Virus record (IMG/VR): IMGVR_UViG_2778261571_000001
Span: 1 to 6,584 of that record
Length of the DNA: 6,584 nt
Direction: 5' to 3' (one strand)
Origin: a virus
Lineage: Duplodnaviria > Heunggongvirae > Uroviricota > Caudoviricetes
A program made the position numbers and the translations under genes. Shown one piece after another: positions 1 to 6,584 of this stretch (position 1 is its first letter; each line of letters begins with the position of its first letter). The notes under the pieces are model-generated. The model saw only the letters and a list, made by a program, of their open reading frames with translations. It was not told where the DNA came from and did no database searches.

Positions 1-5
1 AGTTA

Positions 6-81
6 TGGTGCTGGTTAACGGACTTGAACCGCTACCCATTCGCTTACAAGGCGACTGCTCTACCATTGGAGCTAAACCAGC
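6..81 (-). tRNA. tRNA, anticodon UGU (Thr) by manual folding; 76 nt with encoded CCA
   Basis: Reverse complement of 6..81 folds as a cloverleaf: 7-bp perfect acceptor stem GCTGGTT/AACCAGC, D-stem GCTC/GAGC, anticodon stem GTCGC/GCGAA (one G:A mismatch at 27:43), loop CTTGTAA, T-stem AGCGG/CCGTT with loop TTCAAGT, discriminator A, CCA. Position 14 is C rather than the usual A. Folded by eye, not with tRNAscan. Confidence 0.6.
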
Positions 82-86
82 ATATT

Positions 87-161
87 TGGCGGGACAGCGT
101 GGACTCGAACCACGATAAGAAGGTTAACAGCCTTCCGTGATTACCTTTATACGACTGACCC
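87..161 (-). tRNA. tRNA-like element with Asn-type anticodon loop (GUU); degenerate D-arm, possible pseudo-tRNA
   Basis: Reverse complement shows a perfect T-arm CGTGG-TTCGAGT-CCACG, a perfect anticodon arm GAAGG-CTGTTAA-CCTTC and an encoded CCA, but the D-stem GTAT/TCAC has two mismatches and the acceptor stem GGGTCAG/CTGTCCC has a T:T mismatch at position 4:69. It starts immediately after the tR' U-tract and lies 5 nt upstream of the first tRNA. Confidence 0.4.
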
Positions 162-162
162 A

Positions 163-224
163 AATAAAAAATCCCGAAACCGTTGTGCAGGCTCTAACTA
201 TTACCTGCGAACTGTTTCGGGATT
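163..224 (-). terminator. Rho-independent terminator, lambda tR'-like (end of a 6S-like late leader RNA)
   Basis: On the minus strand a long imperfect hairpin AATCCCGAAAC...GGTTTCGGGATT (plus 171..224) is followed directly by TTTTTTAT. It closely matches my recollection of the lambda tR' sequence. Confidence 0.8.
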
Positions 225-354
225 GCATTTTGCAGACCTCTCAGCCTGCGATGGTTGGAGTTCCAGACGATACGTCGAAGTGACCAACTAGGCGGAATCG
301 GTAGTAAGCGCCGCCTCTTTTTATCTCACTACCACAACGAGCGAATTAACCCAT

Positions 355-395
355 CGTTGGGTCAAATTTACCCAACTTTATTCAAAAAGTCAATA
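355..395 (-). promoter_or_regulatory. Late promoter pR' with overlapping qut site (Q-utilisation)
   Basis: Minus strand has -35 TTGACT (plus 388..393), a 17-bp spacer and -10 TAAATT (plus 365..370). The predicted start near 358 lies about 194 nt upstream of the terminator U-tract, which matches the known length of lambda 6S RNA. Position is immediately downstream of Q. Confidence 0.7.
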
Positions 396-435
396 TCATG
401 CCGTTAATATGTTGCCATCCGTGGCAATCATGCTG

Positions 436-1059
436 CTAACGTGTGACCGCATTCAAAATGTTGTCTGCGATTGACTCTTCTTTGTGGCATTGCACCACCA
501 GAGCGTCATACAGCGGCTTAACAGTGCGTGACCAGGTGGGTTGGGTAAGGTTTGGGATTAGCATCGTCACAGCGCGATATGCTGCGCTTGCTGGCATCCT
601 TGAATAGCCGACGCCTTTGCATCTTCCGCACTCTTTCTCGACAACTCTCCCCCACTGCTCTGTTTTGGCTATATCAACCGCACGACCTGTACCGTGGCAA
701 TCTCTGCATCTTGCCCCCGGCGTCGCGGCACTACGGCAATAATCCGCATAAGCGAATGTTGCGAGAACTTGCAGTACCTTTGCCTTAGTATTTCCTTCAA
801 GCTTTGCCACACCACGGTATTTCCCCGATACCTTGTGTGCAAATTGCATCAGATAGTTGATAGCCTTTTGTTTGTCGTTCTGGCTGAGTTCATGCTTACC
901 GCAGAATGCAGCCATTCCGAATCCGGCTTGTGATTGCGCCATCCCCATAGCAGCCATCACATCAGTACCGGAAAGAGAGTCAGAAGCCGTAGCCCGTGGT
1001 GAGTCGCTCATCATCGGGCTTTTTGGCGAATGAAATTTAGCTACGCTTTCGAGTCTCAT
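436..1059 (-). CDS. Q: Late-gene antitermination protein Q (lambda-type)
   Basis: 207-aa ORF with ATG start. The translation matches lambda Q as I recall it throughout, including the zinc-binding region CRDCHGTGR...CGRCKGVGY. It is followed by a lambda-like pR'/qut/tR'. Confidence 0.9.
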   Translation of the reverse strand: MRLESVAKFHSPKSPMMSDSPRATASDSLSGTDVMAAMGMAQSQAGFGMAAFCGKHELSQNDKQKAINYLMQFAHKVSGKYRGVAKLEGNTKAKVLQVLATFAYADYCRSAATPGARCRDCHGTGRAVDIAKTEQWGRVVEKECGRCKGVGYSRMPASAAYRAVTMLIPNLTQPTWSRTVKPLYDALVVQCHKEESIADNILNAVTR

Positions 1060-1244
1060 GGCCTTCCCCTTTTGCCCTGTTTGACCATCAGGACGCCGTT
1101 AACTATTACGTGACGCTCGCCTTTGCTGTCTCGGTTGTACTTGAGCACTGTTCCTCTTGCGCAGGAAAGCATCCTCGCCACTTCGGTCTGATTGCCTCGT
1201 GTCTGGATAAGAAGCTCTGGTATCGTTTGAATTGTGGCGTTCAT
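1056..1244 (-). CDS. ninH: NinH-like small DNA-binding protein
   Basis: 62-aa ORF with ATG start. The motif TIPELL...GNQTEVARML.C.RGTV.KY resembles lambda NinH. Its stop overlaps the Q start (ATGA). Confidence 0.7.
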   Translation of the reverse strand: MNATIQTIPELLIQTRGNQTEVARMLSCARGTVLKYNRDSKGERHVIVNGVLMVKQGKRGRP

Positions 1245-1603
1245 GCGTTCTCCAGTTCGGTGATTTTTATTCCAAGCCTTCCGCCTGGTACTTTCACACC
1301 ACGAATTACGCGAATGTCATCGAATTGCTCGTCGTCTTCCGCAAATCCGGCGTGGATAAGTGAGTCGAGTAAACCTTTCAGGATGTTATCGAGGTCGCGG
1401 CGGCGGGAGTCTGGAACGTCTGCGATGACTTTGATGCGGAGTCGTGATTTGGTGAAAATGTCTAACTTGAGTTGGCGGATTATTTGCTGAACGTCTTTTC
1501 GGTATTTCTGGCCTTTATCGCTGATGTAGTATTGGCTTCCCCGTCTTCGCCAGTAGGTGTTCAGCGACGGTGGGTACGGAAGTGTGAATCTGTATTCTGC
1601 CAT
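1241..1603 (-). CDS. rusA: Holliday-junction resolvase RusA
   Basis: 120-aa ORF with ATG start and an upstream GGAGAGGA Shine-Dalgarno. It has the RusA hallmarks: N-terminal L/TLPxPPSxN, the catalytic acidic cluster RRRDLDN, and a C-terminal GGRL motif. Length matches E. coli RusA (120 aa). Confidence 0.85.
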   Translation of the reverse strand: MAEYRFTLPYPPSLNTYWRRRGSQYYISDKGQKYRKDVQQIIRQLKLDIFTKSRLRIKVIADVPDSRRRDLDNILKGLLDSLIHAGFAEDDEQFDDIRVIRGVKVPGGRLGIKITELENA

Positions 1604-2128
1604 TTATCCTCTCCCATGATTATGGTGATACCCCAATCGTGATTCCGCCAATTTTCTGGCATTAACGGCTAGAGATATGTCATCGTATAATCCAAGAAAT
1701 ATCTTTTTATTATCACTGTTTATATATGCGCCCCACTTTTTATTCTTCTTATAGTAGGCAACACCCATTACTCCAGAGCGATTATTAATAGGCTTTTTTC
1801 TGTTCCTTGAGTTCTGTTTATCATCTACAACGCGCAAATTGCATATTCTGTTATCGCTTTTAATTCCATTTATGTGGTCAATTTCCCCATCAGGTTCGCT
1901 TCCATAAAATGATATCCATGCGATTCTATGAGCTCGACAAACTTTTTTATTTACAGATATACGAACGTATCCTTTTTCATCTATAGAACCAGCAATCTTA
2001 CCGGCATATGTTGAATTCCAGCACTCTCTTACACTTTCTCTTCTTTTGTATATAAACAAACCTGTTTCGCTATTATATTCATACAATTCATTGATTTCTT
2101 TTTGTGTTGGATATCTTTTACCGTTCAT
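1604..2128 (-). CDS. HNH homing-type endonuclease with C-terminal AP2 DNA-binding domain
   Basis: 174-aa ORF with ATG start. HNH core EIDHINGIKSDNRICNLRVV and an AP2-like segment SGVMGVAYYKKNKKWGAYI. The gene is visibly more AT-rich than its neighbours. Its start overlaps the upstream stop (ATGA). Confidence 0.8.
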   Translation of the reverse strand: MNGKRYPTQKEINELYEYNSETGLFIYKRRESVRECWNSTYAGKIAGSIDEKGYVRISVNKKVCRAHRIAWISFYGSEPDGEIDHINGIKSDNRICNLRVVDDKQNSRNRKKPINNRSGVMGVAYYKKNKKWGAYINSDNKKIFLGLYDDISLAVNARKLAESRLGYHHNHGRG

Positions 2129-2415
2129 GACTTAATCTTCCCCTCCTTCAGCAGTATCGCCTGCGTCCTGATCACGCCTTCGAGGTGGTAAAGTCTGGCG
2201 TCTTTGTTGTCGAGATTATGGGTGCGTCGGTCGATCTCCGCGTGGCAGTCACTACAAGCCCATGCGCCGATCAGGTCGTCAGGCTTCATCCCCGTTCCAC
2301 AAATTCCAGCCATCCGGTAATGTGCCAGAACTGTAGTTTCAGGATTACCATTGCATACGCCGTAAATACGTACCTGGCATTCTCTGCCGCGTGCTTCTTT
2401 GCGTAGATTAGCCAT
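2125..2415 (-). CDS. ybcO: Cys-rich DUF1364/YbcO-family nin-region protein (putative nuclease)
   Basis: 96-aa ORF with ATG start and a GGGGAGG Shine-Dalgarno. The pattern RGRECQVRIxGVCNGNPETxVLAH...CGTG.KP.DL....ACS.CH.EIDRRTH resembles the DLP12 YbcO protein as I recall it. In DLP12, ybcO sits directly upstream of rusA. Confidence 0.6.
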   Translation of the reverse strand: MANLRKEARGRECQVRIYGVCNGNPETTVLAHYRMAGICGTGMKPDDLIGAWACSDCHAEIDRRTHNLDNKDARLYHLEGVIRTQAILLKEGKIKS

Positions 2416-3140
2416 TAAGCAGCCTCCCCTGTTACTTTCAGCATTCCGTTATCGAGCAGCTTTCTGGTCAGCCACTGTTGACCACGCCCGGTGATTTTTG
2501 TGGTGAACGATATCTGTATTCCGTGATTTGTGTTGACCGCTGTTTCTTTCACTGTGAAATAGCCGCGATCCATATATTCCTGCATTGGCACATTGCGCCG
2601 GGAACCTGAAGCAATAAGGATTTTGTGATCGCGCATCCACGCAAACAGTTTGTTTTGACCAATTCCAACAACCTTTGCAAAGTTTCCAATCAAAATTCCG
2701 CTGGCCTCGCCAACTCGATCGGCAAACTCAACTTTAGGTGCGGCAATTGCGAGCTGGTTTTCCAGTTGCATTTTCTGCTCAGCAAGATCAGCAGCAAGGC
2801 GCAACGCTTCCGGTAGCGTTTTGGGGATATTAACCGCAGCTTCTTCAAGCTCTCGCCAGCGGTCAACAAGGCGAGCGGTGAACTCTGGCGACAACTGGGC
2901 GACGACAATAATGCTGTCTCGCTTTCCTTGTTCGCCCTCGAAGACGTAGAAATCACGCTTCCCGGTAATAACACCTAAATCATTGATTATGTTAGTGTGC
3001 TGCAATGCAGGAGGCTTGATAACGCCACGTTTCACCAATCTATCTATGGATACTTTTACATTGCTATGGCGGCTTTCTACCAACTCAGCGATTTCAATGC
3101 TTGTCATTTTGATGGCATTGCCATTTATTAACTCATTCAT
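2415..3140 (-). CDS. Phage regulatory protein, Rha-like N-terminus with KilA-C (ANT) C-terminal domain; putative antirepressor
   Basis: 241-aa ORF with ATG start. The C-terminal segment NVPMQEYMDRGYF fits the KilA-C antirepressor domain signature. The N-terminus (MTSIEIAELV...HSNV...I..L) is Rha-like. Confidence 0.65.
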   Translation of the reverse strand: MNELINGNAIKMTSIEIAELVESRHSNVKVSIDRLVKRGVIKPPALQHTNIINDLGVITGKRDFYVFEGEQGKRDSIIVVAQLSPEFTARLVDRWRELEEAAVNIPKTLPEALRLAADLAEQKMQLENQLAIAAPKVEFADRVGEASGILIGNFAKVVGIGQNKLFAWMRDHKILIASGSRRNVPMQEYMDRGYFTVKETAVNTNHGIQISFTTKITGRGQQWLTRKLLDNGMLKVTGEAA

Positions 3141-3303
3141 CGTCTTCTTCCTCGTACATTGAGCTATTCGGATCGCTCATCAGCTCTGCGCAGCAATCGG
3201 AGCACACGTGAACTTCCAGAAAATGCAGCTTTTGACCGCAGTTAGCGCACGTTAAAGCCCGCTCGACGCTTTGTTGTTCGTAACTTCGATTTGGGTCAAT
3301 CAC
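3133..3303 (-). CDS. ninF: NinF-like small Cys-rich protein
   Basis: The core [41 protein letters not shown] matches lambda NinF as I recall it. The ORF track gives a 70-aa product starting at 3345, but a GTG at 3303..3301 overlaps the NinE stop (GTGA) and gives a lambda-sized ~56-aa product, so I prefer that start. Confidence 0.7.
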
Positions 3304-3482
3304 CTTGTTTTCCTCGCACGTTCTCTTAGCCACCGGATATCCCACAGGTGAGCCGTGTAGTTGAAGGTTTTTACGTCAGATTCTTTTGGGATTGGCTTGC
3401 GTTTATTTCTGGATCGTTTCGTTGGAAGGTATTTGCAGTTTTCGCAGATGATATCGATGAAACTTCGTCGCTGTCGTCTCAT
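3300..3482 (-). CDS. ninE: NinE
   Basis: 60-aa ORF with ATG start. [23 protein letters not shown]...[15 protein letters not shown] is near-identical to lambda NinE as I recall it. Its start overlaps the NinB stop (ATGA). Confidence 0.85.
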
Positions 3483-3889
3483 TCGTACCTCCTGTCGGTA
3501 AATCTGACACCCTGACCAATAGCCCAGGCTGTTGTGTACTCGATCAGACTTGCCATGCGCTTCACGCTCATCTGCGCGCTGCTTTCGCGAATGTTGACGT
3601 ATTCGCCTTCAAGGCCTGGCAAAACATCAGCTTCCTGCTTTGTTGCCACTGCATGACCGCTGATCAACAAAACCTTCCATTGTTCCGGTTTTAACCATTT
3701 GCCGCACCATTGAACCTGACGTGCGATATCCGCCAGCATCGCGTGAAATTTTGCGTTCTGGTCAAGGTTGCGCTTGTAGTCAGTAATGCGGATGGTGACT
3801 GGCTTGTCTTTATCGAGTGGTGTTGCGAGGATGGCATTTATTGCGGCTTGCTGTTGTTGCTTAGTTCGGAGGAAGATTGTTTGCTTCAC
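3479..3889 (-). CDS. ninB: NinB (Orf-family recombination mediator)
   Basis: 136-aa ORF with a GTG start preceded by AAGGAG. The motifs LDQN.K.......I..QV.W.G and Y...S.AQM resemble lambda NinB. It occupies the standard position at the head of the nin cluster. Confidence 0.8.
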
Positions 3890-3900
3890 TGAATACTCCT

Positions 3901-4086
3901 TTATTTTTTATGCCTGTAACCCCATTCTTCCAGCAACCTTGCGGCGTACCACCCAAGAAACAAAGGAAAGAACATTACAATGAGATATTCCCCGCCACGG
4001 TCAATGTTCGAAATTGACCAGATTACGATGTAACCAGTGCAGAACAGGAATATTACAAACCCCAAAAAGCTACTTCGTCGACTCAT
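3901..4086 (-). CDS. Hypothetical small membrane protein (2 predicted TM helices)
   Basis: ORF of ~61 aa from ATG at 4086 (the track's 63-aa version starts at a GTG at 4092). AAGGAG lies 5 nt upstream of the ATG. Two hydrophobic stretches (FLGFVIFLFCTGYIVIWSI and YLIVMFFPLFLGWYAARLL) and a basic C-terminal tail. No family recognised. Confidence 0.45.
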   Translation of the reverse strand: MSRRSSFLGFVIFLFCTGYIVIWSISNIDRGGEYLIVMFFPLFLGWYAARLLEEWGYRHKK

Positions 4087-4088
4087 GC

Positions 4089-4409
4089 TCACTCCTTCAC
4101 TTTGATTCCAGCAGCGCGGATGTTTTCCTCATAAGCATCCATTGCATCACCGAAGCCATTGGAATAATCAACAGTAAACCCTTTGGCTAATGCTTCTCTG
4201 CTGTCGATAAACTTTGGCGCGGTTATTTCAATAGCTGATCGCGATGCCTGCCACGTTTGCCAGTGGCCTTGAACATCGTCCATCACGTATTGACCACCAA
4301 TATTACCACTGCCAATTTCATGGTGATTTTCAGGGTAACGGATAAGGTCTGAGGATTCGCCTCCACGTCGCAACCAACTTTCTTCAAACTGCTTTCTTGA
4401 TTCGTCCAT
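4089..4409 (-). CDS. Hypothetical acidic soluble protein, ~106 aa
   Basis: ATG start with a GAGGGT Shine-Dalgarno. No recognisable catalytic motif. Tightly packed between two small 2-TM ORFs. Confidence 0.55.
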   Translation of the reverse strand: MDESRKQFEESWLRRGGESSDLIRYPENHHEIGSGNIGGQYVMDDVQGHWQTWQASRSAIEITAPKFIDSREALAKGFTVDYSNGFGDAMDAYEENIRAAGIKVKE

Positions 4410-4426
4410 CGATACTTACCCTCAGT

Positions 4427-4633
4427 TCAACTCACAAAACGCCACGCCATTTTTGCTACAGCGACAGGCATAACACCGATAATCACCCAGACAAATGCAG
4501 CGCCAAACAACGTATACCATGGGTCTTTACCGTCATTCACAAGACGAATGTAGCTATGCAGAACAATAAATAACGTCAGAAGAATCCATCCAACGCCAAC
4601 GCATTTGAATGCGACGAGCATAAACTCAGCCAC
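4427..4633 (-). CDS. Hypothetical small membrane protein (2 predicted TM helices)
   Basis: 68-aa ORF from GTG at 4633 (GGGGGAGAG upstream); an alternative ATG at 4621 would give 64 aa. Two hydrophobic helices (LVAFKCVGVGWILLTLFIVL and LFGAAFVWVIIGVMPVAVA). The start is uncertain. Confidence 0.4.
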   Translation of the reverse strand: MAEFMLVAFKCVGVGWILLTLFIVLHSYIRLVNDGKDPWYTLFGAAFVWVIIGVMPVAVAKMAWRFVS

Positions 4634-4649
4634 GATTTACTCTCCCCCA

Positions 4650-4680
4650 AATAAAAAGGCCTGCGATTACCAGCAGGCCT
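4650..4680 (-). terminator. Intrinsic terminator downstream of the helicase gene (tR2-like position)
   Basis: 8-bp perfect GC-rich stem AGGCCTGC/GCAGGCCT (plus 4657..4664 and 4673..4680) with an 8-nt loop. On the minus strand it is followed by TTTTTATTT. Confidence 0.55.
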
Positions 4681-4708
4681 GTTATTAGCTCAGTGATGTA
4701 GATGGTCA

Positions 4709-6145
4709 TCAGAATCCTCCTTTCTTCTTGGACTGCGGTTCCTCGCGTTCACGGCGGCGCATTTCAGCAGACTGTTGGTCTGTGTCATAAATAGCGCCAT
4801 TTGCCTGAATGCAATACACCGTGCCGGTATTGCCATGACGATTGAGACGAAGGATTAGTTCGGTTTCACCAGGTGGAACACTGTCATCAAAAGCACCTTC
4901 ACGATGGATCCCCACCCAATAATCGCAATCCTGTTCAATCTGCCCTGTATCTCTGGAGTCACTTGGTAATGGGCGTTTATTGGTTCGGCTTTCCAGTGCG
5001 CGGTTAAGCTGTGTCAGAAGCACAACAACGCAATCAAGCTCTTTGGCAAGGTTCTTCAGTCCTTTGGTGATCATGCCGTAAGCAAGGTCGTTGCGATCGG
5101 CCTTTTCAGCGGTCATTAGTGTCAGGTAATCGACCAGAATCATGCCAACACATCCTTTTTCTCGCTTGATTCGACGGCTTTCGCTGACGATTTGAGCCAG
5201 AGATAATCCCGGCGTGTCGTCGATGTAAAGCAGGTCGATTTCACTTAAGCGATTGGCTGTTTCGATCGCCCTGTTGAAGTCACCATCGTAATCACCCTGA
5301 TAGCCGTCATCAGCGTCATTTGTCGCCGGAAGGTAAAAAATATTCGGGTTAACACCTGACTTCTGTCCCACCAGTTTTTCCAGTATCTGGTCACCAGGCA
5401 TTTCAAGGCTGAACATCAGAGCGGGCTTTTTCTCATGCACTGCGCAGTTGATTGCCATCTGGCTGTATAGCGTCGTTTTCCCCATCTTAGGGCGGGCGCC
5501 AATGACAAACAGAGAGCCTTTCACCAGACCTTTCGGTGACAGCATCCTGTCCAGCGATGGGATCCCTGTGCTCATTCCTCGTTGCTCGCCTGACGGGTCA
5601 AATCGCTTCTCAAGGTCGCTAACCCAGTCTTCCATGACCTCACCAAATGAGCGAAGGCCGCGACGCGATCCGGTTTTTGCATGGTCTGTCAGTTGCGTGA
5701 AAATCGCCTGAATAGCTTCGTACTTCTGCGTTGCAGTCATTCCGTTGCGGGAATATAGCAATTCCGTCGCTTCAGTCATGCGGTTGATGGCGTAGCGTTC
5801 CATTGCGGTTTCGCGAACCTGCATTGCATAGGCAACGATGTTTGCGGAGCTTGGCGTGTTCTTTGCGATCTCAGCGATATAAGCAAAACCGCCAACAGAC
5901 GCCGTTAACGATTTACGCTCCAGTTCATCGAAAAGCGTCAGGCCATCTACTGGCTTTTGCTCCCGGTGCATTCTGGTTATTTCTTCGAAAAGGATTTTGT
6001 GTGGTCGGCTGTAAAATGAATCAGGCTTCAGCATCGCCAGAACTTTCTGGACGCGCTCACTGCTGTCATCATCCAGAAGCAATCCACCAATCACCGCCTG
6101 CTCTGCCTCGATGCTATTTGGCGGCGAATAAAAATTATCGGTCAT
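4709..6145 (-). CDS. Replicative DNA helicase, DnaB family (phage P22 gene 12-type)
   Basis: Walker A GARPKMGKT, DnaB N-terminal motif SIEAEQAVIGGLL, and a DnaB-like H2 region GMILVDYLTLM. I place the start at the ATG at 6145..6143 (GAGG Shine-Dalgarno ~9 nt upstream) rather than the GTG at 6160 used by the ORF track. Confidence 0.9.
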   Translation of the reverse strand: MTDNFYSPPNSIEAEQAVIGGLLLDDDSSERVQKVLAMLKPDSFYSRPHKILFEEITRMHREQKPVDGLTLFDELERKSLTASVGGFAYIAEIAKNTPSSANIVAYAMQVRETAMERYAINRMTEATELLYSRNGMTATQKYEAIQAIFTQLTDHAKTGSRRGLRSFGEVMEDWVSDLEKRFDPSGEQRGMSTGIPSLDRMLSPKGLVKGSLFVIGARPKMGKTTLYSQMAINCAVHEKKPALMFSLEMPGDQILEKLVGQKSGVNPNIFYLPATNDADDGYQGDYDGDFNRAIETANRLSEIDLLYIDDTPGLSLAQIVSESRRIKREKGCVGMILVDYLTLMTAEKADRNDLAYGMITKGLKNLAKELDCVVVLLTQLNRALESRTNKRPLPSDSRDTGQIEQDCDYWVGIHREGAFDDSVPPGETELILRLNRHGNTGTVYCIQANGAIYDTDQQSAEMRRREREEPQSKKKGGF

Positions 6146-6584
6146 CGTGTTCACCCTCACGAACTTTCAGGTAGGTATTATCGTTAAGCAGGAAATCAAA
6201 TCCCTTTTTGTGCCAGACGGTTCCGCGCTGATGGTTTGGGCGCTCTTCGAACATCCATCGGCAATTTTCGCCTACGTAGTTCAAATAATTTCTCCAGTCC
6301 TGCATCGTGAACCCATGCCCGTCAAGCTGGCGGGTTATCACTCCGGCTTTGCGCCAGAACGTTCGGATCTGGTTTTTACGCTTGTCATTCAGTGCGCGGA
6401 TTTTTGGCGCTTCAGGAAGGATTTCGTGGTAAGCATCGACAACATCCTGACAGCTGACGGAAGGTTTTTTCTTGTCAGACTTTTTGTCTGCTGTGGCACT
6501 CTCTAATACGTCAGTATTAGAGATATTATTTATATTATTGTTTATGGACAACCGTTGGACAACCGTTGGACAATCTCCGCTGAG
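6135..6584 (-). CDS. O-like replication initiator, C-terminal portion (5'-truncated by the window edge)
   Basis: The reading frame stays open on the minus strand to position 6584, so the TTG 'start' at 6551 in the ORF track is an artefact. The ORF contains iterons, an AT-rich tract and a palindrome, as the lambda O gene does. The stop lies 5 nt upstream of the helicase start. Confidence 0.65.
   Translation of the reverse strand, partial: LSGDCPTVVQRLSINNNINNISNTDVLESATADKKSDKKKPSVSCQDVVDAYHEILPEAPKIRALNDKRKNQIRTFWRKAGVITRQLDGHGFTMQDWRNYLNYVGENCRWMFEERPNHQRGTVWHKKGFDFLLNDNTYLKVREGEHDDR
6501..6546. other. Origin AT-rich unwinding tract (6523..6546) plus 9-bp inverted repeat CTCTAATAC/GTATTAGAG (6501..6522)
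   Basis: A strongly AT-rich stretch, with a perfect 9-bp inverted repeat and 4-bp spacer next to it. The order iterons, AT-rich, palindrome on the coding strand mirrors lambda ori. Confidence 0.55.
6547..6574. repeat. Origin iterons: tandem 11-bp direct repeats GGACAACCGTT (2 full copies plus a partial third; array may continue off-window)
   Basis: Exact tandem copies at 6547..6557 and 6558..6568, then GGACAA at 6569..6574. The ~one-helical-turn period and position next to an AT-rich tract inside the initiator gene fit iterons. Confidence 0.6.

Follow-up and report, generated by a model that had tools for sequence, protein, structure and literature searches.

A phage tRNA-Asn/tRNA-Thr cassette joined to a lambda-type late control region

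The stretch analysed here, referred to as the window, is 6,584 nucleotides (nt) long and comprises positions 1 to 6,584 of the IMG/VR virus record IMGVR_UViG_2778261571_000001, a member of the Caudoviricetes. At its left edge two genuine tRNA genes, one for tRNA-Asn(GUU) and one for tRNA-Thr(UGU), immediately follow the late terminator tR'. Window positions 6-161 are a two-gene cassette of the phage 21/Sf6 type joined directly to a lambda-type Q-pR'-6S-tR' region, an arrangement that is already known and ordinary. The best overall explanation, which we hold to be probable, is that this real tRNA cassette provides, late and under Q control, decoders for ACA and Asn codons that would also resist TOPRIM tRNases. 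The features concerned all lie on the minus strand:

1..5 (-): start of the spacer after tRNA-Thr, TAACT, 5 nt, matching the start of the TAACTGAGCCGT spacer class
6..81 (-): tRNA-Thr(UGU) gene, found by ARAGORN and Rfam RF00005, with encoded CCA
82..86 (-): inter-tRNA spacer, AATAT, 5 nt
87..161 (-): tRNA-Asn(GUU) gene, found by ARAGORN and RF00005, with G73, encoded CCA, U4•U69, U13•U22 and a private A12•C23
139..142 (-): allele-specific D-arm substitutions of tRNA-Asn (plus-strand G at 139 is U23→C in the tRNA, plus-strand T at 142 is C20→A)
162..171 (-): U-tract of tR', TTTTTTATTT, common to lambda-type and phage-21-type terminators, the mosaic joint
~172..224 (-): tR' terminator hairpin, -27.6 kcal/mol, z = -5.6, 98% identical to lambda
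165..358 (-): 6S-type late leader RNA, with approximate ends inferred from lambda by the position of the pR' -10 element and homology to lambda 44,781
365..393 (-): late promoter pR', TTGACT, 17 nt, TAAATT, from a promoter scan, identical in Kapi1
436..1059 (-): lambda-type Q antiterminator gene (PF03589, E 1.3e-57), product 206/207 identical to lambda Q

The tRNA genes and the mosaic joint

A sequence-only reading of the window had described two tRNA-shaped elements within positions 1-161 and proposed that rejection of both by tRNA predictors would speak against it. ARAGORN accepts both, calling Thr(tgt) at 6-81(-) and Asn(gtt) at 87-161(-), and the Rfam model RF00005 (gathering score 29) gives 61.5 bits (E 7e-12) for tRNA-Thr and 49.8 bits (E 1e-8) for tRNA-Asn. 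Both genes are on the minus strand, so tRNA-Asn is transcribed first, and both encode the CCA end. The tRNA-Thr, rightly seen in the earlier reading as folding canonically around a UGU anticodon, has four arms, a 7-nt loop with U33, a T loop of the form UUCRANU and G18G19; it is near-canonical, the exceptions being one G27•A43 pair flagged by Rfam and C14 in place of A14. Position 14 is A in nearly all tRNAs and is the pairing partner of U8. Across the alleles of this tRNA-Thr, position 14 is C, U or G and never A, and the tRNA-Thr of phage T5 has the opposite combination at these sites, A8/U14.

The tRNA-Asn also has four arms, U33, G18G19 and a T loop, UUCGAGU. The structural details noticed earlier all hold: a CUGUUAA anticodon loop, flawless anticodon and T arms, an acceptor stem with the mismatch U4•U69, and a disrupted D stem (G10-C25, U11-A24, A12•C23, U13•U22), in which only two Watson-Crick pairs remain. 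In E. coli the identity set of asparaginyl-tRNA synthetase (AsnRS) comprises G34, U35, U36 and G73, and that of threonyl-tRNA synthetase (ThrRS) comprises G1-C72, C2-G71, G35 and U36. The window tRNA-Asn has the AsnRS set (G34 U35 U36, G73-CCA), and the tRNA-Thr has the ThrRS set (GC...GC acceptor pairs, anticodon UGU) along with A73-CCA. Recent capture from the host was considered and rejected, identical aligned positions numbering 48/78 for tRNA-Asn versus asnT and 55/78 for tRNA-Thr versus thrU. Short plus-strand open reading frames (ORFs) across the tRNAs, for example 137-283, were judged mechanical; the like of them are mis-annotated as hypothetical proteins in some records.

Upstream, a Q protein, the pR' hexamers, a 6S leader and the tR' hairpin with its U-tract together make up a lambda-type Q antitermination module. 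The window DNA is 98.2% identical to lambda 43,875-44,781, through the tR' U-tract, and the impression that the Q/pR' module is identical to that of lambda is close to the mark. None of 200 shuffles folded as well as the tR' hairpin, and the GenBank record of HK446 annotates a lambda-PR'-like promoter at the position of pR' in the window. G1 of tRNA-Asn, at 161, directly abuts the U-tract TTTTTTATTT (171-162), so that the "almost no spacer" of the earlier reading is in fact 0 nt. Homology to lambda spans 164-340 and ends inside the U-tract, while homology to phages 21 and Sf6 spans 1-185; the joint is thus the terminator tail that both types share.

Lambda has the same Q (206/207) and the same TTGACT/TAAATT promoter hexamers and, as had been stated, no tRNAs at this position. 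It carries 163 unrelated base pairs (bp) there instead (44,782-44,944, part of 'orf-64'). In HK446, a 159-bp cassette replaces exactly that lambda segment and lambda homology resumes at 44,945, into S. The possibility that lambda 44,782-44,944 is a decayed cassette was rejected: its alignment score was reached by 64 of 500 shuffles, and ARAGORN makes no call in it.

The cassette is widespread. Positions 1-185 are 94-96% identical to phages 21, Sf6, SfI, BTP1, SPN9CC and Oslo and to many Salmonella P22-like phages, with tRNA-Asn and tRNA-Thr annotated in most of those records. Annotations of the pair exist already for phages 21, Sf6, SfI, BTP1, Kapi1 and mEp506; the paper on SfI noted it also in Sf6, ST64T, PS3 and p21 (PMC3636060), and it is described in PMC8787464 as well. 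Positions 1-340, which include the lambda-type tR' and the tRNAs, are 98.8-99.1% identical to Kapi1, HK446, mEp506 and phiv205-1, and this arrangement is also found in 85 complete E. coli genomes. The tRNA-Asn is carried by 368 of 5,426 complete E. coli genomes (~7%). For the window as a whole, no match in the phage and complete E. coli collections extended over more than 90% of its length. The earlier claim that the slot between tR' and the lysis genes recurrently holds tRNAs in lambdoid phages is borne out in these relatives.

Set against the cassette of 21, Sf6, SfI, BTP1, Kapi1 and HK446, the window has the same genes, order, 5-nt inter-tRNA spacer, 0-nt TTTTTTATTT junction and post-tRNA spacer start. 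Its tRNA-Thr is 76/76 identical to that of HK446 and its tRNA-Asn is 73/75 identical. It differs from the 21/Sf6 type in the private C20→A and U23→C of tRNA-Asn, and in having a lambda-type instead of a 21-type Q/tR', which it has in common with Kapi1, HK446, mEp506 and phiv205-1. Everything that defines a 21/Sf6-type Asn-Thr late-leader cassette is present, with the holin gene, outside the window, predicted from 87/87 relatives. Positions 1-161 can accordingly be annotated as two phage tRNA genes that are ordinary and have been described before. The cassette is not obligatory: ten loci with exactly the window's Q protein and eight with exactly its HNH endonuclease are all devoid of tRNAs, and HK542 matches the window from 336 onward while lacking the cassette.

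More distant arrays occupy the same slot between Q and the holin gene. The Klebsiella lambdoid phages ST101-KPC2phi6.1 and Mulock (loci L004 and L005) carry a homologous tRNA-Asn (86-90% identical) and a homologous tRNA-Thr and, like the window, keep U4•U69 and show compensatory stem changes. Their arrays differ in being expanded to Asn-Phe(GAA)-Thr-Arg(UCU), in some cases with an additional Gly(UCC) (also in L084), and in having no U-tract directly upstream of tRNA-Asn. A separate minority class (L014 5553-5625, L046, L096, L098, L110, L023, L129) consists of tRNA-Asn, a chimeric tRNA-Thr(UGU) and then tRNA-Gly(UCC). The 5' half of the chimera matches the phage tRNA and its 3' half is nearly exactly host thrU; ARAGORN misses it, and Rfam scores it at 47 bits. 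In the host, thrU and glyT belong to one operon.

Conserved and private features of tRNA-Asn

The sequence-only reading had left open whether the second element is a decaying pseudo-tRNA or a non-canonical phage tRNA. A degenerate search pattern running from the anticodon loop to the T arm retrieved 135 loci. They contain 27 distinct Asn alleles, 25 of which were aligned and counted, one 5'-rearranged and one 3'-recombinant allele being dropped. The pattern fixed columns 30-40 and 43-57, where invariance is uninformative, and left the co-varying positions free.

U13•U22 is unpaired in 25/25 alleles and U4•U69 in 23/25, the other two having G•U or U•G. Around these mismatches the stems change in compensatory fashion: 5:68 from C-G to A-U, 6:67 from A-U to G-C and 7:66 from G-C to A-U in the acceptor stem, and 28:42 from A-U to C-G or U-A and 29:41 from A-U to U-A in the anticodon stem. 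Paired cells make up 90.1% of the alignment versus 83.4% in shuffles, and 31 double-sided changes, involving six pairs, were observed against 8.7 expected. The covariation score was reached by 0/500 shuffles, and slid registers fall to 35-53% paired. Because the flanking stem pairs co-vary while U4•U69 and U13•U22 persist, the family is best read as a non-standard tRNA maintained by selection, not one in decay. Of the two options first offered, the second therefore stands for the family, and decay could at most apply to the window's private U23→C. The tRNA-Thr behaves similarly, with compensatory changes at 3:70 and 6:67 in Klebsiella-phage alleles; its commonest allele, found in 68/119 loci, is that of the window. 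The inter-tRNA spacer is AACAT in 58 loci, AATAT in 48 and GACAT in 3.

The window's own tRNA-Asn is another matter. The canonical allele, that of Sf6, phage 21 and Kapi1, occurs in 86/135 loci. Compared with every phage and E. coli record, the window shows two D-arm substitutions, C20→A and U23→C. These are also the sole differences between window and HK446 within the tRNAs. U23→C turns A12-U23 into A12•C23. Position 20, in the D loop (plus-strand position 142), is the most variable site of the family, with C, A, U and G all occurring. The window allele is rare (2/135 loci), its only other carrier being IMG/VR contig UViG_2541047719_000002 (locus L008), which has an exact match to the 28-mer of the variant D arm. 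L008 is a different mosaic phage, 90-98% identical to the window in patches. The allele occurs in none of the 368 complete E. coli genomes that bear the tRNA-Asn, and the variant 28-mer had no match in species-representative genomes or metagenome contigs.

The two substitutions weaken the D stem, and the window's copy may be a weaker tRNA. A further step would be to regard it as a hypomorphic or decaying pseudo-tRNA, leaving tRNA-Thr as the only functional gene here, which we consider rather unlikely. In its favour, the Rfam score drops from 55.3 bits for the canonical allele to 49.8, the D stem is down to two Watson-Crick pairs, and the allele is as rare as the searches above indicate. Both changes also strengthen an alternative helix of 20-26 with 48-54 stacked on the anticodon stem. 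The minimum free energy (MFE) structure of the window allele is accordingly a non-cloverleaf rod at -24.2 kcal/mol, against -18.4 for the cloverleaf, and the acceptor, anticodon and T helices, taken together, have an ensemble weight of 0.001, down from 0.21 in the canonical allele. MFE models are, however, poor judges of tRNA cloverleaves, which tertiary contacts and modifications stabilise and which such models often miss, and an A•C mismatch can be tolerated. The score remains far above the Rfam threshold and ARAGORN still calls the gene; the identity elements, T loop, G18G19 and CCA are all intact. Position 20 is hypervariable, with A20 alone present in other alleles, and the occurrence of the allele in two different mosaic phages means that it has been propagated. 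Either way, this rare D-arm allele is a natural variant for probing how far an unusual tRNA needs its D stem.

One duplicate elsewhere in the collection has a different appearance. In Klebsiella phage 2b LV-2017 (L006, 2501-3552), the first tRNA-Asn has C14 and a 3' ACA replacing CCA. It is followed by ~820 bp without a convincing ORF and then by a second tRNA-Asn and a tRNA-Arg(UCU), none of these tRNAs being annotated in the record. Unlike the window's copy, this first tRNA-Asn looks like a truly degenerating duplicate.

Probable mode of expression and proposed roles in codon supply and tRNase resistance

The expression pathway that we propose follows lambda biology. Polymerase initiating at pR' would halt at tR' unless modified by Q, whereas Q-modified polymerase would read through, with the tRNAs as its first late products. 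RNase P and 3' trimming would free the tRNAs, and the cut at G1 of tRNA-Asn would strip the 6S/terminator leader from the late mRNA. Host AsnRS and ThrRS would then charge the two tRNAs, and the cassette would both add ACA and Asn decoding capacity and supply copies that survive the TOPRIM tRNases of competing mobile elements. No promoter-like site is present between tR' and tRNA-Asn, where there is also no room for one (0 nt), and a scan of Kapi1 found no separate promoter between pR' and the holin gene. From the spacing and the lack of a promoter-like site we infer that synthesis of the tRNAs is probably Q-dependent.

In published RNA sequencing (RNA-seq) of the BTP1 lysogen, the two tRNAs are listed apart from the other highly expressed prophage genes, and the late operon transcript is described as starting directly after the two tRNA genes; spontaneous induction is high in this lysogen, and the data do not separate leaky from Q-dependent tRNA synthesis. 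A late transcript beginning right after the tRNAs is what would be expected if they served mainly as RNA-processing punctuation, with RNase P removing the leader and setting the 5' end of the late mRNA. The 0-nt U-tract junction, found in lambda-type and 21-type contexts alike, fits this too. Against it, late genes are expressed normally in lambda, HK542 and many phages of the same Q allele, all of which lack tRNAs at this place, and punctuation would not keep anticodons, discriminator bases, CCA ends or covariation throughout the stems. We regard it as improbable. Less probable still is compensation for damage done to a host tRNA gene by the integrating prophage, an idea suggested for HK446 by the authors of a preprint on P2 OLD and in line with the integration of many relatives into tRNA genes (PMC3636060, PMC8787464). 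Kapi1 uses argW and SfI thrW, and these genes encode neither Asn(GUU) nor Thr(UGU); the att duplication of Kapi1 leaves the host tRNA intact; and the cassette lies in the late operon, far from int/attP and past a terminator that is closed in lysogens. This idea has in our view next to no chance of being right.

Two observations concern the opposite strand. A perfect 7-bp palindrome, GTTGGGT(N7)ACCCAAC, at window 356-376 is followed by a T-rich run on the plus strand and overlaps the pR' -10 element and start site; the scan scored it as a terminator for antisense (plus-strand) transcription. RNA-seq of Kapi1 shows a clear antisense signal over the tRNAs (PMC12922286).

For codon usage, Kapi1 served as a proxy for the late genes that lie outside the window, and E. 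coli K-12 was sampled by 40 genes from one 50-kb region:

Kapi1 late genes: ACA 24.5% of Thr codons; Asn 51 per 1000 codons
Kapi1 early genes: ACA 34% of Thr codons; Asn 43 per 1000
the window's nine ORFs: ACA 37% of Thr codons; Asn 47 per 1000
40 E. coli K-12 genes: ACA 10.5% of Thr codons; Asn 35 per 1000

ACA is thus over-used 2.3-3.5 times in Kapi1 genes and window ORFs relative to E. coli (Fisher p = 3e-9 for Kapi1 late genes), whereas the choice between AAU and AAC, a comparison that the sequence-only reading had proposed, differs only mildly between phage and E. coli. A similar ACA result has been published for SfI (17.3% versus 7.1%; PMC3636060). These numbers, and the higher Asn content of late genes, bear on the classical explanation of phage tRNAs, in which the cassette would be pure codon supplementation for an AT-richer phage genome, for ACA above all, with nuclease resistance incidental. 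Within the codon data themselves this possible, though doubtful, account meets two difficulties: the choice of Asn codons is near that of the host, and the SfI authors found no codon bias explaining tRNA-Asn (PMC3636060); and ACA use is higher in early than in late genes, making the codon match genome-wide and not late-specific, with the peak in genes translated before the tRNAs would be made.

Further difficulties come from work on tRNA-cleaving defences. A July 2026 preprint describes P2 OLD as a tRNase that depletes the tRNAs Thr(UGU), Gly(UCC), fMet, Val(UAC) and Pro(UGG), with Thr(UGU) as the top target. Expression of the HK446 tRNA-Thr(UGU), tested there alongside viral tRNAs of the T5, T4 and Bas32/33 group, restored plating of HK97, HK542 and Bas34 on OLD to near wild type, and extra E. 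coli tRNA-Thr was without effect on OLD-sensitive phages. Sequence therefore matters and not only dosage, which speaks against codon supplementation alone, as does the fact that, among the five tRNA species found in this slot, three (Thr(UGU), Asn(GUU) and Gly(UCC)) are published targets of OLD or AriB. OLD resistance of the tRNA-Thr has been established by others for the HK446 tRNA; for the window tRNA-Thr it is predicted from its 76/76 identity. The preprint mentions a single HK446 tRNA (Thr), and the GenBank record (L141, JQ086372.1; 1506-1661) annotates neither tRNA; ARAGORN finds a canonical tRNA-Asn adjoining. Two tRNA species of the chimeric Asn/Thr/Gly arrays, Gly(UCC) and Thr(UGU), are among the published targets of OLD.

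The second nuclease, AriB of the PARIS system, is reported to target Lys(UUU), Thr(UGU) and Asn(GUU) tRNAs at the motif U36-A-A-U39-C40|N41. For tRNA-Lys, cleavage is abolished by U39→A and impaired by A41→C and by U16→C, and the Lys, Thr and Asn tRNAs of T5 together neutralise PARIS. Positions 36-41 of the relevant tRNAs are:

host thrU: UAAUCA
host asnT: UAAUCC
window tRNA-Thr: UAAGCG
window tRNA-Asn: UAACCU
T5 tRNA-Thr: UAAGCA
T5 tRNA-Asn: UAAGUU
T5 tRNA-Lys: UAAACC

The window tRNA-Thr has A16, G39 and G41 where host thrU has U16, U39 and A41, and the window tRNA-Asn has A16, C39 and U41 where host asnT has U16, U39 and C41. Since both replace U16, U39 and N41, both are predicted to be AriB-resistant. 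Replacement of U39 is shared with the T5 Thr, Asn and Lys tRNAs, the window tRNAs being changed at U16 and N41 in addition, and the anticodons Thr UGU and Asn GUU recur in T5, T4 and Bas32/33. Close homology to the T5 tRNAs was rejected (~63-64% identity), and the T5 type, a large early/middle array, differs from a two-gene cassette without tRNA-Lys under late control in a temperate phage. Base-specific D-loop contacts of AriB have been reported as well, at positions 16-17; the window's private D-loop change is at position 20.

There is a stronger version of the favoured explanation, which we consider possible but less likely than not. The cassette could be a compact, horizontally shuffled counter-defence module against the TOPRIM tRNases (P2 OLD and PARIS-like AriB) of rival P2/P4-type elements, with tRNA-Asn as an AriB-resistant replacement and not a codon supplement; the odd features (U4•U69, U13•U22, hypervariable position 20) and the window's D-arm changes would then reflect evasion of nucleases by a tRNA that remains chargeable. 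If true, this would explain the conservation of a tRNA-Asn without a codon-usage rationale in temperate phages, and the cassette would be a simple marker predicting prophages that escape tRNA-cleaving immunity.

Several points weigh against reading the cassette as a late supply of resistant decoders. The folding of the window tRNA-Asn, the missing codon rationale for tRNA-Asn in SfI and the early peak of ACA use, all given above, are among them. Lys(UUU), the prime target of AriB, occurs in 0/135 arrays at the slot, and without it the cassette cannot on its own overcome PARIS as characterised. Diverged tRNAs are expected to differ fairly often by chance at positions 16, 39 and 41. With OLD, the single tRNA-Thr did not rescue lambda or relieve OLD toxicity, HK446 also encodes a protein inhibitor of OLD, and the authors of the 2026 preprint favour a lifestyle explanation. 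For the window itself, expression, processing, charging and nuclease resistance are all predicted properties. The wider point is modest: a 160-bp cassette present in ~7% of complete E. coli genomes includes one tRNA that others have shown to blunt P2 OLD.

The left flank and the remaining ORFs

Stx-converting lambdoid phages carry tRNA genes between pR'/tR' and the toxin genes, which is the slot used here as well, where the late transcript that depends on Q begins. From this parallel the sequence-only reading had expected a moron slot, with a Q-dependent cargo gene just left of position 1, and had named a flank with only the standard lysis genes as the outcome that would refute it. That outcome is seen in every relative with the same spacer; the window's own flank lies outside the data. 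The next ORF is a holin gene, starting within 116-245 nt, in 87/87 resolvable loci with the TAACTGAGCCGT spacer class, including 14/14 with a lambda-type tR'. In three phage 21-type loci a spurious short ORF was called and the annotated S21 start was used instead. The holins belong to PF05106, PF04971 and PF16080. The holin gene starts ~242 nt past tRNA-Thr in Kapi1, HK446 and Sf6 and 120 nt past it in phage 21, and L008 has the lambda S reading frame at 242 nt. In the spacer between the tRNAs and the holin gene of Kapi1, no third or degenerate tRNA or other Rfam RNA was found.

The window's TAACT fits this spacer class, and the cassette almost certainly leads straight into the lysis genes with no hidden cargo gene. 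The left flank is predicted to read ...CCATAACT then GAGCCGTAGCC..., and a holin gene (lambda S, S21 or HP1-type) should begin within ~120-250 nt. Cargo can occupy the slot, as an ORF with a TerB domain shows (PF05099, E 4e-16; 114-143 amino acids (aa); ~170 nt past the array; L046, L098, L119, L054, L057). This ORF precedes the lysis genes and is a genuine candidate cargo gene, but it follows the minority arrays of Asn, thrU-like Thr and Gly(UCC), whose spacer (TATGCGGG...) is of another class than the window's. Stx phages, for which an ileX near stx2 has been cited (PMC3636060), differ further in their tRNA species. With the holin next in all same-spacer relatives, lambda S at 242 nt in Kapi1, HK446 and L008, and lambda homology resuming after the HK446 cassette up to S, a cargo gene left of position 1 is very improbable, and the expectation of a hidden toxin-like gene beside the tRNAs is removed.

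Every long ORF in the window has minus-strand orientation. Pfam identifies a DnaB-type helicase, NinB, NinF, an antirepressor, YbcO, an HNH endonuclease, RusA, NinH and the lambda-type Q. The HNH_3 endonuclease ORF (1604-2128 (-), 174 aa) lies between ybcO and rusA; since these two genes abut in relatives with the same neighbours (L145, L147, L148, L150), it has the appearance of an inserted mobile homing-endonuclease gene. The assembly collection has 1,444 blocks in which this exact protein is indexed. In L150, which has the same Q allele, Q and pR' are separated by another inserted homing-endonuclease gene, of the HNH_3/AP2 kind (5049-5387), and the sequence after that insertion is 100% identical to window 164-355. 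The 106-aa ORF at 4089-4409 (-) had no Pfam hit in our scan, and precomputed tables give the tag PF26207 (Phage_phiTE_015) to neighbours of the same size in related loci.

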